DNA of 64,000 nucleotides from Alphaproteobacteria bacterium (GTDB lineage Bacteria; Pseudomonadota; Alphaproteobacteria; UBA7887): NCBI GenBank assembly GCA_965216755.1, contig CBDCGL010000011.1, forward strand, positions 3,744,001 to 3,808,000. Reading direction: 5' to 3'. Below are positions 2,332-40,985 of the stretch, in pieces. The notes under the pieces were generated by a model. It did no database searches and was not told the DNA's origin. It saw only the letters and a program-made list of their open reading frames with translations. Numbering within the stretch: position 1 is the stretch's first letter; each line of letters begins with the position of its first letter. A program made the position numbers and the translations under genes.

Positions 2332-3432
2332 TTAGACGTTAAACCGAAACAGCAGAACGTCCCCGTCAGCAATCACATAATCACGGCCTTCTTGGCGCAT
2401 CTTGCCCGCATCCTTCGCGTCTTGTTCTCCTCCACAAGCAATATAGTCGTCAAAACTGATCGTTTCGGCGCAAATGAAGCCACGTTCGAAATCGCTGTGG
2501 ATGTTTCCTGCGGCTTCGGCCGCCGGCGCGCCGCGGGGCACTGTCCAAGCCCGGGATTCTTTCGGACCGGCGGTAAAGAAAGTGATCAAGTCGAGCAGGG
2601 CATAACCGGCTCTGATCAGGCGCGACAGGCCGCTCTCCTCCAATCCCAGATCATTCAAAAATCCGGTGCGCTCGGCCGCGTCGTCGAGCTGTGCGATCTC
2701 CGCTTCGATTGCCGCGGAAATCACCACAGCTTGCGCGCCCTCCGCCGCCGCCATCTCGGCAACCTTGGTGCTATGGCCGTTGCCCGTGGCGACATCGCCT
2801 TCGTCGACATTGCAAACATAGAGGACTGGTTTTGCGGTAAGCAATTGCAGGGCCTGACAACGGGTGCGATCGGCACCGTCGAAAGCCAGCTTGCGCGCCG
2901 GGATGCCGTCGCGCAGCGCGGCCAACACCTGCTCCATAACCGACAACGTTGCGCGGGTTTCCTTGTCGCCGCCACGCGCGCGTTTGGCGCTCGCTTCCAC
3001 GCGTCGCTCCATGCTGTCTAAATCGGCCAGCAGCAATTCGGTGGATACAGTCTCAGCATCGCCGATCGGGTCGACGCGGCCGCCAACATGGGCAATGTTG
3101 TTATCTTCGAAACAACGCAAAACATGGGCGATCGCATCGACGCCGCGAATTTGGCCGAGAAACTGGTTGCCCAGCCCTTCCCCTTGGCTGGCCCCACGGA
3201 CCAGCCCGGCGATATCGACGAATTCGAGATGGGTTGGGACAACGCTTGGCGAACCGGCCAGTTTGGCGACTTGGTCAAGACGGTCATCGGGCACCGCGAC
3301 CCGGCCGACATTGGGCTCGATCGTGCAGAATGGATAGTTGGCGGCTTCGGCCGCCGCCGTGCTGGTCAGTGCGTTAAACAGCGTCGATTTGCCGACATTG
3401 GGCAGGCCGACAATGCCACAGTTAAATCCCAT
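2332..3432 (-). CDS. ychF: Redox-regulated ATPase YchF
   Basis: GIVGLPNVGKST P-loop, NYPFCTIEPN, DIAGLV, C-terminal TGS domain ending LFRFNV. Confidence 0.98.
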   Translation of the reverse strand: MGFNCGIVGLPNVGKSTLFNALTSTAAAEAANYPFCTIEPNVGRVAVPDDRLDQVAKLAGSPSVVPTHLEFVDIAGLVRGASQGEGLGNQFLGQIRGVDAIAHVLRCFEDNNIAHVGGRVDPIGDAETVSTELLLADLDSMERRVEASAKRARGGDKETRATLSVMEQVLAALRDGIPARKLAFDGADRTRCQALQLLTAKPVLYVCNVDEGDVATGNGHSTKVAEMAAAEGAQAVVISAAIEAEIAQLDDAAERTGFLNDLGLEESGLSRLIRAGYALLDLITFFTAGPKESRAWTVPRGAPAAEAAGNIHSDFERGFICAETISFDDYIACGGEQDAKDAGKMRQEGRDYVIADGDVLLFRFNV

Positions 3433-3439
3433 ATGGCGC

Positions 3440-3879
3440 CTAGCGCGATATCCGACAAAATTGAACGATCCTGCCGGCGCACATTTTCGCCAATATCAAG
3501 TCGCTGTCCGCAAGGCGTATCCGGCATACGGCCAAGGATAGCGGCGCAGGGATTGACGTAAAATCGCCCGGCCCCGCAGGTTTGTGGCTGGCGGGCCGCC
3601 ACTTTGTCGTATGACTTGCCCGATGCGCGCGTGCGGTGGATCGGACGTACGCTTGATCTCGCATCGAGCACCAGAGCGAACGTCCGATCCGTGAACCGCA
3701 CGAGATCCAAATATTCGGCTCGTGTCCTGACGAAACAGAAGTTCGTAAGGTGCCTGGGGTCAGACGTGACGAACTGCGGTTTCGGGACACGAGCATCGCG
3801 CTGCGGCGGCATTCGCGTGGATCGCGACGCCGCCGAGCCGCGAGCAGAATTGATCCAATTTTGTCGGACACGGCTCTAG
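3440..3879. mobile_element. Non-autonomous MITE-like, highly structured element between pth and ychF
   Basis: CTAG at both ends (3440-3443, 3876-3879). Each lies exactly 7 nt outside a perfect 13-bp inverted repeat TCCGACAAAATTG (3451-3463) / CAATTTTGTCGGA (3856-3868). Five internal hairpins and no credible protein. Confidence 0.75.
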
Positions 3880-4493
3880 TCGCTGGCTTGGCGGTCGGTG
3901 GACGGGGTGTCTGACTTGGGCGGCCGCGGGTTCATGACCAGGGCGACTTTGTTCATGAAGTTGGCGTCATCGCCCCGTACCAGCTCCGGCGCCGCATCGG
4001 CGATTGCCGGCAGCATCCGGTCAAGCCATTCTTGATCGGCCTTGGCAAAGTCTTTCAGCACGTACCCGTGCACCATGTCGCGCTGGCCCGGATGGCCAAT
4101 GCCGATGCGCACGCGCCGGTAAGCCTTGCCGATATGGGCGTCGATGCTGCGAATGCCGTTATGGCCGCCGGCGCCGCCGCCCGTCTTGACCCTGAGTTTG
4201 CCTGGCGCCAGGTCAAGTTCGTCGTAAAGCACCACGATCGAATCGAGCTGCAGCTTGTAAAAGCGCGTGACTTCACCGACCGCGCGTCCGGACTCGTTCA
4301 TGAATGTCGTTGGCTTCAGGCCCAGCACGCGCGTGCCGGCGATATGGCCTTCGGCAATTTCACCCTGGAAACGACGTCGATAAGAGCCAAAGCGGTAACG
4401 CTGCGCGATGGCGTCAAGGGCCATGTAACCGACATTGTGACGATTCCAGACGTGTTTTGCGCCCGGATTGCCAAGACCGACGAACAACAACAC
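3876..4493 (-). CDS. pth: Peptidyl-tRNA hydrolase
   Basis: VGLGNPG, RHNVG, KPTTFMNESG, GGHNGIRS motifs. Confidence 0.97.
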   Translation of the reverse strand: MLLFVGLGNPGAKHVWNRHNVGYMALDAIAQRYRFGSYRRRFQGEIAEGHIAGTRVLGLKPTTFMNESGRAVGEVTRFYKLQLDSIVVLYDELDLAPGKLRVKTGGGAGGHNGIRSIDAHIGKAYRRVRIGIGHPGQRDMVHGYVLKDFAKADQEWLDRMLPAIADAAPELVRGDDANFMNKVALVMNPRPPKSDTPSTDRQASD

Positions 4494-5251: not shown

Positions 5252-6184
5252 TCAATCGAAAAGACTTGAAACCGAGCTTTCCTCGCTGATCCGTCGCATC
5301 GCCTCGGCCAACAGCTGGGCGATCGACAAAACGCGAATATTGTTTGCCACGCGCACGGCCTCGGTTGCTTGGATCGTGTCTGTGATCACCAACTCGCTGA
5401 TCACCGACGCGCTAACCCGCGCCACGGCCCCGCCCGATAACACGCCATGGGCGACATAAGAGATTACCTTTGTCGCGCCCGCCTCGACCAATGCCTCGGC
5501 CGCGTTGCACAACGTGCCCGCGCTATCGACGATGTCATCTACCAGAATACAGCGCCGCCCTTCAACCTCACCGATGATGTTCATCACTTCGGAAACGCCG
5601 GCACGTTCGCGCCTCTTATCCACAATGGCCAAGCCGGCGTCAATCCGCTTTGCGATCGCGCGCGCGCGGACCACGCCGCCAACATCGGGCGAGACCACCA
5701 CCAGATCATTGCCGGCGTGGCGCGACTTGATGTCTGCGACCATTACCGGCGCGGCGAACAAATTGTCCACGGGGATATCGAAAAAGCCTTGGATTTGGCC
5801 CGCGTGCAGGTCCATGGTCAGCACCCGGTCGGCGCCCGCCACAGTGATCAGGTTGGCGACCAACTTCGCCGAGATCGGCGTCCGTGGTCCGGGTTTGCGG
5901 TCCTGCCGGGCATAGCCGAAATAAGGGATCACGGTGGTAATGCGTCGCGCCGACGCACGCTTCAAGGCATCAACCGTGACCAGCAGTTCCATCAGATTGT
6001 CGTTGGCGGGAAACGACGTTGACTGCACCAAGAACATGTCCTCGCCGCGGACATTTTCCAGAATCTCAACAAACACTTCTTGATCAGAGAAGCGCCGAAT
6101 GCCGGCATCGGTGAGCGGCATGTTGCAATAGGCCGCGACGGCTTCGGCCAACTGCCGATTGCTGTTTCCCGCGATGATCTTCAT
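5252..6184 (-). CDS. prs: Ribose-phosphate pyrophosphokinase
   Basis: [34 protein letters not shown]. Confidence 0.98.
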
Positions 6185-9147: not shown

Positions 9148-9938
9148 GGTGACGCGCGGGCGCGCCAGATCAGCCACAAACCAGCCAACAGCATCGGCAG
9201 CGATAGCAGCTGGCCCATGGTGATGCCGCCGGCTAGAAAACCGATATGCGCGTCGGGCTGCCGAAATAGCTCACCGATCATACGTGCCAGCGCATAGCCC
9301 GCCAGGAACACCCCGGTCAACAGCCCGCGTCGACCGGCGAGGGCCGCGTTATGCGCCAACCAAGCCAAAACCACAAACAGCAACGCGCCCTCTAATGCCG
9401 CCTGATAGAGCTGGCTGGGGTGGCGCGGTTCTGGCCCGGCCATCGGAAACACCATGGCCCATGGCACATCGCCGGCACGGCCAAATAGTTCGCCATTGAT
9501 GAAATTCGACAGGCGACCAAAGAACAAGCCGATCGGCACGGCGGCGGCAACCGGATCGGAGACTTCAAAAACCGACACCTTTTGTCGCCGGGCAAATACC
9601 ACCATGGCAATAATCACGCCGATCAGGCCACCGTGGAACGACATGCCGCCTTGCCATATCGCCAACGCTTCCAACGGATTGGCGAGATAGTGACCGAGCC
9701 GATAAAACAACACATAACCGAGTCGCCCGCCCAACACGACGCCCAAGGTTGCCCACAGGAGCAAATCATCGATGGCGACCCCGCCGAGGCGGGTGACGCC
9801 GCGCCGCGACAAGTAGTGAACGTAGCGCCAGCCGAGCAACAAGCTCACCACATAGGCGAGCGCATACCAGCGAATCGCCAACGGGCCGATCTGAATGGCG
9901 ATCGGATCGAAGCCGGGAAAGACCAAAGGATCGTTCAT
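9144..9938 (-). CDS. lgt: Prolipoprotein diacylglyceryl transferase
   Basis: GGRLGYVLFY, GGMSFHGG, GRLSNFINGEL, HPSQLY. Confidence 0.97.
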   Translation of the reverse strand: MNDPLVFPGFDPIAIQIGPLAIRWYALAYVVSLLLGWRYVHYLSRRGVTRLGGVAIDDLLLWATLGVVLGGRLGYVLFYRLGHYLANPLEALAIWQGGMSFHGGLIGVIIAMVVFARRQKVSVFEVSDPVAAAVPIGLFFGRLSNFINGELFGRAGDVPWAMVFPMAGPEPRHPSQLYQAALEGALLFVVLAWLAHNAALAGRRGLLTGVFLAGYALARMIGELFRQPDAHIGFLAGGITMGQLLSLPMLLAGLWLIWRARASP

Positions 9939-29937: not shown

Positions 29938-30041
29938 TCTGGTTCCGGTTGGTTACGTGAGCCGTCATTTTGCGGCGCTGGGCGCCGAATTTGCGGCGAG
30001 CATAGGCGCGGCAATTCAGTCTGTCACGGCTTGCCCGGCTA

Positions 30042-32182
<2,141 letters not shown>

Positions 32183-32216
32183 CTTGTCATCTGTCTGGCC
32201 CTGTTCAAGACCCCGA

Positions 32217-33404
32217 CTACGCCGCCTGGCTCCATCCCGCACCGCTGGCATAGTCACGGATGCGGGCCAAGGCGCGGCGGATGTTGTCGATGCTGTTGGC
32301 ATAGGAAAAGCGGATGTAGCCTTCGCCGAACGCGCCGAAGCTGGTCCCCGCAATGGCGGCCACCCCGAGTTCCTCCAACAACAGGGTTTCCATTTGCTTA
32401 GAGGTCATGCCGGTGCCGGCGATGTTCGGCATCGTGTAAAAGGCACCGGTCGGCAAGATCGATGAGCAACCGGGAATGTTGTTGGTCTCTTCGACGATGA
32501 TTTTGCGCCGTTCGTCGAATGCCTGGCGCATGGTTTCGACTGAATCCTGCGGGCCGGTCAGCGCCGCCAGTGCGGCATATTGCGTGGCCGCGTTGGTGCA
32601 CGAGACCGAATTGATGTTGAGCCGGGTCGCATGGTCGACCAGCGGCGACGGCCACACCGCATAGCCGATCCGCCAGCCGGTCATGGCATAGGTTTTCGAC
32701 CAGCCATCCAACAGGATCAGGCGGTCGCGCAGCGACTCATAGCTGAGCAGGGTGACGAATTCGGTGTCGTCATAGAGCAGCCGCGAATAGATCTCGTCAG
32801 ACATGACGACCACCTGCGGGTGACGCGCGAGCCCTTCTACCAATCGGTCAAATTGTGCGCGCGGGACGACGCCGCCGGTCGGATTGGCGGGACTGTTGAT
32901 GATCAGCAAGCGGGTCTGTGGGGTAATCTTGTCCAGCACTTCGTCCGCGTCGAAGGCAAAGCCATTGGCCTCGCGCAGCGGAATTGGCACGGCTTTGGCG
33001 CCGGAGAAGTTGATCACCGACTCGTAAATCGGGAAACCGGGATTGGGGTACATAATCTCCGCGCCCGGTTCGCCGAACATCAGAATGGCGTACCACATCG
33101 TGACCTTGCCGCCGGGGACGATGACGACATCATCGGGATTGACCTCGATGCCCCGAAACGACGCGCAATCGGCGGCGACGGCCGCGCGCAAGGGCAGGAT
33201 GCCGTTGCCCGGCGTATAGCCGTGATGTCCGTCGGCCAAGGCCTTTTGTGCCGCTTCAACGATATGATCGGGGGTGCGAAAATCAGGTTGGCCGATACCG
33301 AGATTGATAATGTCGCGGCCCTGCAATTCAAGCGCCTTGGCCCGCGCCAAAACTTCAAACGCGCTTTCGGTGCCGAGCCGGCTCATATGTGCGGCAAGTT
33401 GCAT
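32217..33404 (-). CDS. PLP-dependent aminotransferase class I/II
   Basis: [33 protein letters not shown]. Confidence 0.94.
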
Positions 33405-40635: not shown

Positions 40636-40854
40636 TTCGCCGTTCTCGTTCTCCCTTGCGCGCGGCATTGCGGCATTGCGGCATGCGGCGCGCCAACCGA
40701 TCACCGGACCTGCCCGGTTTCGGGCCGCCGATCAAAGATGGCGGTGCCGAAGAATCTGTCAACCGCTTGATGTCAAAGCCGACCTTGGCACTATGGTGGC
40801 GGTGCCGCAGCCTCTGCCTCAGTCAAAATTCTACCCTTTTTCCGATGTTTTGTG

Positions 40855-40883
40855 TTGCGAATGGTTCTCATTCGCGATAAATC
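40855..40883 (+). promoter_or_regulatory. Fur-type box overlapping a sigma-70-like promoter
   Basis: TGCGAATGGTTCTCATTCGC contains the perfect inverted repeat GCGAATG-N5-CATTCGC and a 7-1-7 TGCGAAT-G-GTTCTCA. -35 TTGCGA (40855-60), 17-nt spacer, -10 (GA)TAAATC (40878-83). Confidence 0.65.
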
Positions 40884-40889
40884 ATAACT

Positions 40890-40985
40890 GACGACTTCGA
40901 CGCGGCCGCAAATGGGCTTTGTCGAAGGAGCCTCTCCTTCGACTGGGTGGGTCGGTTCTGTCACGGGGGCCGGCCCCATTTTTTT
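40890..40985 (+). ncRNA. Putative iron (Fur)-regulated small RNA
   Basis: Promoter and Fur box upstream, structured body with a CCUCUCCUU anti-SD motif, plus-strand intrinsic terminator. Both neighbouring genes are on the minus strand. Confidence 0.65.
40949..40985 (+). terminator. Rho-independent terminator (plus strand)
   Basis: GGGTCGGTTC (40949-58) pairs with GGGCCGGCCC (40967-76) using G-U pairs, followed by T7 (40979-85). Confidence 0.75.

Follow-up and report, generated by a model that had tools for sequence, protein, structure and literature searches.

The question raised by this locus is what separates two neighbouring genes, pth and ychF, in the 64-kb window (the whole stretch of DNA analysed here) of an alphaproteobacterial genome (GCA_965216755.1, contig CBDCGL010000011.1). 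The genes prs (5252-6184), rplY/L25 (4513-5187), pth (3876-4493) and ychF (2332-3432) follow one another on the minus strand, and between the TAG stop codon of pth (3878..3876) and the ATG of ychF (3432..3430) lie 443 nt, nearly all of them belonging to a 436-bp insertion (about 432-436 bp). Our best reading is that this insertion is an orphan, unusually large and hairpin-rich element resembling a miniature inverted-repeat transposable element (MITE), related in type to the IS5 or IS630 insertion sequences (ISs), and probably the remains of a small transposon, not a novel class of RNA gene. Specifically, positions 3444-3875, together with a duplicated TA or CTAG, probably constitute a non-autonomous, MITE-like DNA transposon of about 432-436 bp.

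Comparison of sequences gives good support to the view that the element was inserted into an otherwise tight pth-ychF junction. A preliminary description of this DNA had claimed symmetric, CTAG-flanked ends, a right CTAG containing the pth stop codon, and a compact operon junction once the element is removed, and all three points were reproduced: the two CTAGs are read directly at 3440-3443 and 3876-3879, and excising 3444-3879 yields the junction GAC-TAG-GCGCCAT-ATG. The landing site would have been a CTAG located where the final codon of pth meets its stop codon (GA-CTAG). Since the element starts with G and finishes with C, insertion would have rebuilt CTAG on both sides; read from the sequence, this restoration is demonstrable, and as a result neither the TAG stop nor the C-terminus of pth has been lost, and ychF retains its 7-nt leader (GCGCCAT on the minus strand, 3433-3439, from the left CTAG to the ATG). 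Both flanking genes appear intact. The product of pth, peptidyl-tRNA hydrolase (205 amino acids, Pfam PF01195, E 5e-62), aligns with that of several relatives up to residue 205, the last residue of the window protein, which indicates that the insertion neither truncated nor lengthened Pth. The ribosome-binding ATPase YchF (366 amino acids, PF06071 and PF01926) is 61-72% identical to its relatives over the full length.

The relatives were gathered by one Pth search of genome contigs, which gave at least 80 loci from Rhodospirillales or other alphaproteobacterial genomes, all of them distant (best Pth identity 65-70%, maximum 70%) and amounting to 1.27 Mb, or 1.34 Mb with the window. In 63 of the loci listed, ychF comes after pth in the same orientation; the remaining 17 comprise 13 without ychF in the locus, three with ychF on the opposite strand and one with an unaligned N-terminus. 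The pth-ychF spacer measures -11 to +8 nt in 28 of the 63, 20-126 nt in 22, 271 nt in one and more than 800 nt (0.8-2.8 kb) in 12, and it is 5 nt or less in all eight loci with the most similar YchF among those listed. The junction of loci L014 and L017 reads GAC-TAG-G-ATG, an unoccupied CTAG at the same codon. Empty sites of the kind expected for a MITE are therefore found in relatives (28 of 63 junctions tight, L014 and L017 with the site itself), at Pth identities of up to 70%, and the insertion that the preliminary description had proposed on the window alone is borne out by them.

Other relatives carry inserts of their own at this junction. The 271-nt spacer of L023 holds a palindromic element unrelated to that of the window, in the arrangement TAA-CTAA[...]CTAG-T-ATG; it occupies 270 nt (729-998) exactly between the pth TAA and the ychF ATG, has a minimum free energy of about -186 kcal/mol (z about -14 to -16; -13.7 in one run), and its 26-nt inverted ends agree at 25 of 26 positions. 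Palindromic repeats of 70-90 nt are present in the spacers of L041 (10607-10732), L026 (10610-10722) and L029 (10622-10738), with z-scores of -3.6 to -5.4. These Bradyrhizobium- and Afipia-type repeats recur elsewhere in several of the 10-20-kb loci, which serves as a positive control that dispersed repeats are detectable by our method and marks the pth-ychF junction as a repeated landing site for such repeats.

The ends of the window element have the form expected of a transposon. A perfect 13-nt inverted repeat, TCCGACAAAATTG, lies at 3451-3463 on the plus strand and at 3856-3868 on the minus strand, these being its sole exact copies in the window, and a CTAG stands 7 nt beyond each arm of this core. 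The match extends to 28 nt at 82% identity (23 of 28; 3436-3463 against 3856-3883), so that terminal inverted repeats as known from MITEs are present both as core (13 of 13) and as extended repeat. In the ychF-proximal arm (3444-3463, plus strand) the perfect core is preceded by the tip CGCGATA, and in the operon-proximal arm (3856-3875, minus strand) by the minus-strand tip (G)AGCCGTG, whose AGC or GAGC is common to elements found in L004, L021 and L046; the two 20-nt arms agree at 16 positions. The right CTAG would represent the putative target duplication, of TA or of all four bases, and the left CTAG its second copy. An integration host factor (IHF) site consensus was also looked for by eye at the right end; it is matched only in part, and we make no claim of it.

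The flanking tetranucleotide is itself uncommon. The 64 kb contain 32 CTAGs, approximately 7-fold fewer than the 228 that base composition would predict; a Markov estimate gives 50. Noncoding sequence makes up only about 10% of the window by a crude gene call, yet 14 of the 32 copies lie outside coding sequence, either at a stop codon or in an intergenic stretch. A scarce tetranucleotide that clusters around gene ends would steer transposons with a CTAG or TA target to stop codons. Among the 37 pairs of CTAGs less than 2.5 kb apart, only the pair at 3440 and 3876 encloses matching inverted sequence (18 of 25 positions in register; maximum 11 in the others).

When the window and the relatives' loci were scanned for YTAR pairs 70-2200 nt apart with at least 17 of 24 in-register inverted matches, six of 30,306 pairs in 1.34 Mb were retained: the window element itself and elements of 114-266 nt in L023, L046, L004, L021 and L036. 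All six have z-scores of -5 to -16 on both strands and fold into internal hairpins enclosed by a closing helix. After the TA, the ends begin with GAGC in L004 and L046, AAGC in L021 and GAGCC at the right end of the window element. Read as a duplication of TA, the tips are perfect in three of four elements (L004, L021 and L046), with CTAA, TTAG and CTAG as targets: L004 has GAGC at both ends, L021 AAGCGTTTCG at both ends and L046 GAGCCTTTCACGG at both ends, the readings for L004 and L021 being judged by eye. The operon-proximal end of the window element, GAGCCGTGTCCGA, is close to the GAGCATTTCCGA of L004. YTAR flanks and shared tips of this kind fit duplication of TA or CTAG by an IS5-family (IS427-like) or IS630-like transposase.

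The elements of L023, L046, L004 and L021 thus resemble that of the window in having YTAR on both sides, inverted ends (starting GAGC or AAGC in three of the four), a helix that closes them and a marked excess of folding, but differ in being much shorter and in lacking significant sequence similarity to it (z at most 3.3). The preliminary description had held that similar small elements occur in alphaproteobacteria, and this stands as far as architecture goes, including an example at the very same junction in L023. The L036 element was left out of the set because of a direct repeat beyond its CTAGs: it is a 169-nt element (1890-2058) with CTAG-initiated inverted ends and the 10-bp direct repeat TGCTTTCGCA outside them, its apparent insertion site being the loop of a palindrome (GTCCCTGC...GCAGGGAC), and we regard it as a different kind of element.

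Two members of the set, those of L023 and L046, constitute a separate family: they are homologous by local alignment (z 15.3), with 78% column identity and 22 of 70 base pairs changed on both sides, mostly in the inverted ends. Each contains an inverted dimer of an 87-nt hairpin unit (L023 772-958; L046 12871-13057), in which the tip, GATGC...CATCG, does not vary but the stems do. The unit also occurs singly in L046, at 9417-9496 or 9417-9499 (E 2.7e-5; 68 bits), with a CTAG-AGCCCGTTTC end beside it (position about 9374). The layout is reminiscent of a REPIN, but with inverted-repeat ends and YTAR flanks. In addition, a solo 21-mer in a divergent intergenic region of L046 (173-193) equals the inverted end of L023 with two mismatches and has no partner arm nearby. 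The tip of hairpin A of the window element, compared by eye, and a weak local alignment of its hairpin E (z 3.3) had suggested that the window hairpins might be units of this family; we rejected this, since the unit models R1 and R2 gave no hit in the element at E<=10 over the 1.34 Mb and, with filters off on 701 nt, scored only 10-17 bits.

We propose that a DDE transposase acting in trans, with YTAR sites as its targets, would have moved the window element. The likeliest source is the IS5 family, either an IS427-like group duplicating TA or the IS5 group duplicating CTAG, with an IS630-like source as the alternative; the parent would then be an IS5-family (IS427-like) or IS630-family transposase gene bounded by repeats similar to GAGCC.GTGTCCGACAAAAT. 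IS630 likewise duplicates TA within CTAG. The flanks of the element can be read as C-TA-G or as CTAG, and so agree with YTAR insertion and a 2-bp or 4-bp duplication as in the IS427 or IS5 group. The literature, cited throughout from excerpts of the papers, offers parallels: IS5 copies are flanked by CTAA or CTAG (PMC11677980), IS427-group elements of Paracoccus have 2-bp repeats and were the IS group most commonly captured there (PMC3281130), and MITEPsy1, which derives from an IS5-family IS, duplicates CTAG or YTAA and has repeats whose inner 12 nt are perfect while the tips are not (PMC3189936). ISPsy19, of the IS5 family, has a 17-nt repeat, GAGGGTGTAGACAAAAT, which as excerpted from PMC3189936 agrees with GAGCCGTGTCCGACAAAAT of the window at 15 of 17 positions with two 1-nt gaps; this comparison was made by eye and may be taken as a lead only. 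A search of the literature for the repeat string returned only primers and unrelated matches.

MITEPsy1 of Pseudomonas syringae, as excerpted from PMC3189936, is the closest parallel in form, being noncoding, with imperfect outer and perfect inner repeats and with CTAG or YTAA on both sides. It differs in its length of 100 nt, its several copies, its identified parent ISPsy2 and the transposition seen for it, whereas the window element is about four times longer, carries five long hairpins, is single-copy in the sequences searched and has none found there as parent. The Correia or NEMIS elements of Neisseria (PMC2229807, excerpts) share the inverted-repeat ends, the TA termini and the position between co-transcribed genes; they differ in their size of 107-155 bp, their hundreds of copies and the IHF site of the long form, and have no sequence relation to the window element.

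Several observations weigh against a MITE-like transposon. The outermost 7 nt of the arms agree at only 3 of 7 positions, and transposon tips are usually the best-kept part of the ends. CTAG is a palindrome, and from a single copy a target duplication cannot be told from a part of the inverted repeat; the L036 element, with its direct repeat beyond the CTAGs, illustrates that CTAG can belong to the ends. There are no further copies of the element or of any of its hairpins in the window, the relatives' loci, plasmids or phages, no transposase domain among the 56 window open reading frames (ORFs) scanned, and no IS with the 40-nt ends of the element in 72,556 plasmids, where these ends found only chance matches (E=6) in an ABC-transporter gene and in an archaeal plasmid. 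A simple deletion derivative of an IS does not account for five long, mutually unrelated hairpins. Finally, the element is bigger than the MITEs of the excerpted accounts, in which bacterial MITEs are about 100-200 bp (PMC2229807) or generally below 300 bp (PMC3189936).

The interior of the element is highly structured. As RNA, a 447-nt stretch covering it folds at -209.2 kcal/mol on the plus strand (z -5.1) and at -223.3 kcal/mol on the minus, operon-sense strand (z -8.6), and none of 100 shuffles per strand folds as well; without the ends (3480-3845) the z-scores are -5.0 and -6.5, again with none of 100 shuffles as good. Six other intergenic stretches of the window gave z-scores of +0.6 to -4.4 with 15 shuffles each. 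The sense fold has 161 pairs, 16 of them G-U, and the antisense fold 148 pairs with 6 G-U. When both strands are folded as single-stranded DNA, neither is favoured (-126.4 and -123.2 kcal/mol; z -7.1 and -6.4), as is expected of palindromes in DNA. In the minimum-energy folds a terminal helix encloses all hairpins. In operon-sense RNA and a 747-nt context, this closing helix comprises 33 bp, formed by a 5' arm at 3843-3879 (minus strand) with 3440-3475 at pairing probabilities of 0.95-1.0; G-U accounts for six of its sense-strand pairs, and the two CTAGs pair with each other at 0.95-0.98. The 7-nt ychF leader is unpaired in the folds.

Five hairpins lie inside this helix. Hairpin A (3483-3564, core 3500-3547) is the sole one clearly better on the plus strand, where its core has two G-U pairs and -23.8 kcal/mol, compared with -16.3 on the minus strand. 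Hairpin B (3566-3600) is a short G+C-rich stem (-17.5 plus, -16.9 minus), weak and with a fold that varies with strand and context. The others are strong on both strands: C (77 nt, 3628-3704; repeat I3) at -45.6 and -47.4 kcal/mol on plus and minus, D (81 nt, 3716-3796; repeats I2 and I6) at -39.3 on either, and E (48 nt, 3796-3843; repeats I7 and I16) at -32.1 and -33.6. The hairpins are unrelated to one another (z at most 3.2 in 20 comparisons). Of the earlier claim that five hairpins are closed by the terminal repeat, the enclosure and the strength of C, D and E were upheld, while B proved weak. The proposed preference of the structure for the plus strand, antisense to the operon, survives for hairpin A only, B being about equal on both strands and the whole element folding better in the sense of the operon with 16 rather than 6 G-U pairs; an antisense RNA thus finds no support.

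How could a tightly spaced junction accommodate such an insertion? We suggest that the element is passively carried and co-transcribed inside the pth-ychF transcript; neither a sigma-70-like promoter nor a terminator-like excess was found between 3300 and 4000. In this transcript the inverted ends would form the 33-bp helix over five unrelated hairpins, so that the UAG of pth and the AUG of ychF would meet at the base of a single stem. The helix would pair the CUAG part of a weak Shine-Dalgarno-like UAGG upstream of ychF, and termination of a ribosome at pth would open the 5' arm and thereby expose the start of ychF. Such opening would mean that an ancestral stop-start coupling could survive the 0.44-kb insertion. 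Modulation of ychF by the element may be envisaged. Any inverted-repeat element in a tight junction gives the same geometry, which explains tolerance and is no proof of function.

Correia elements may further serve as a 'works like' model, by analogy, for the element in the RNA. In their transcript, according to the excerpts of PMC2229807, a long stem arises at which RNase III cuts, with effects on the neighbouring mRNAs; by the same token, the long duplexes of the window element would be plausible RNase III sites, and cutting there could uncouple the two halves of the mRNA.

The strand preference of the fold invites the view that the element is a resident, functional cis-acting RNA, whose structure selection would maintain as a means of adjusting, in relation to pth, the translation of ychF or the processing of the mRNA. 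The sense strand folds best as RNA, it has the larger number of G-U pairs, of which the six in the closing helix would be C-A mismatches on the other strand, and the CUAG next to the ychF leader is paired with a probability of at least 0.95; moreover, structured inserts recur at the junction, in L023 as well as in L041, L026 and L029. We nevertheless think this explanation unlikely, as the two DNA strands fold equally, hairpin A favours the other strand, the element is absent from the closest relatives among the loci listed, and the other junction inserts are unrelated in sequence, with those of Bradyrhizobium or Afipia type being dispersed repeats, which points to tolerated landings rather than to a conserved function. 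The element also has no Rfam match at the gathering threshold (at E<=10 only a 17.7-bit chance match to a microRNA model), and no homologue was found on which covariation could be assessed, so that the large structured RNA of the preliminary description received no support as a family. Group I and II introns, omega or bridge RNAs and retron RNA were considered and dropped for want of an Rfam signal and of a neighbouring gene. A more elaborate version, which we hold to be doubtful, takes the element as a self-closing intercistronic RNA module, with a closing helix that holds the pth stop and the ychF start, and likewise for the wider YTAR-flanked set in five alphaproteobacterial genomes. Unmasking that depends on termination would then preserve or tune coupling across 0.44 kb, and the structure of the sense RNA, with its surplus of G-U pairs, would be under selection; if true, this would explain both the tolerance and the recurrence of such elements in an otherwise overlapping junction.

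The mutual unrelatedness of the five hairpins could instead point to a mosaic, in which different small palindromic repeats (REP-, BIME- or RIME-like) landed successively in or beside one inverted-repeat element. Reusable units of this sort are known from the L023 and L046 elements, which are built as inverted dimers of a hairpin unit with a solo copy in L046, and rhizobial genomes contain dozens of intergenic mosaic and palindromic repeats (PMC2573895, excerpts). We give this explanation a small chance. A REP-, BIME- or RIME-type unit would be found at many intergenic sites, whereas no hairpin of the element recurs within the 64 kb, although Bradyrhizobium-type repeats do recur across loci of 10-20 kb; hairpins C, D and E lack flanking TA, CTAG or other direct repeats, and none of the window hairpins matches the L023/L046 unit model. 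With no hairpin recurring in the window and none related to another, the nest of MITEs or abundant repeats envisaged in the preliminary description is not borne out. RIMEs, Sm-repeats and BIME-type mosaics are not known to be defined by terminal inverted repeats and a target-like duplication. They are similar to the window element in being intergenic and noncoding, in containing several palindromes and in lying inside alphaproteobacterial operons, but differ in their many dispersed copies of shared units (PMC2573895, excerpts). That the stretch is a protein-coding gene or its decayed remnant, for instance of genes that separate pth and ychF in some relatives, is very improbable. A 143-amino-acid ORF does span the element on the operon strand (3440-3871), and 12 of the 63 loci listed have 0.8-2.8 kb between pth and ychF. 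However, the 143-, 91- (plus strand) and 148-amino-acid ORFs have no Pfam match and no homologue among 5.8 billion clusters and 1.84 billion representatives, with the 'longer' and 'shorter' length classes left out for the 143- and 91-amino-acid ORFs; their codon-position GC is flat (.55/.62/.62, compared with about.67/.45/.72 in window genes), and tblastx of the element against all 80 loci listed gave noise only (<=35 bits). These results agree with the earlier description of the element as noncoding and with the usual picture of a MITE as small (here about 436 bp) and without transposase or coding capacity. An error of assembly, for instance a chimeric or fold-back join, is scarcely credible: nothing beyond the palindromic nature of the stretch speaks for it, while the flanking genes are intact and correctly oriented, the junction reconstructs exactly, the G+C content of the element (0.60) matches that of the window, and several distinct imperfect hairpins are unlike a fold-back chimera.

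If the MITE-like transposon is the right explanation, the outcome is an ordinary one and opens no long-standing question. It would nonetheless illustrate how 0.44 kb can be accommodated at an essential and tightly coupled junction of an operon, the inverted ends folding the insert out of the way. In addition, YTAR flanks combined with in-register inverted repeats would provide a simple recipe for finding little-described, hairpin-filled MITE-like elements in alphaproteobacteria.

Other parts of the window drew attention during the analysis. Immediately downstream of ychF, 497 nt (1835-2331) have a G+C content of 41%, compared with 60.5% for the window, and contain no ORF with a coding-like GC bias; this stretch shows no unusual folding (z -0.9 and -0.6), and its CTAGs at 1952 and 2322 have no inverted repeats inside them. 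Long stretches without called ORFs lie on either side (29938-30451 and 32354-33079) of a uvrB-like ORF (30452-32353), in which no C-terminal UVR domain was found in Pfam at E <=1e-5 and which may contain a frameshift or have mis-called ends. Upstream of an ELM1-like gene (PF06258), the intergenic region 40705-40983 folds better than its shuffles, with z-scores of -3.1 and -4.4 (15 shuffles), and the only hairpin seen there is one of 10 bp at 40921-40943.

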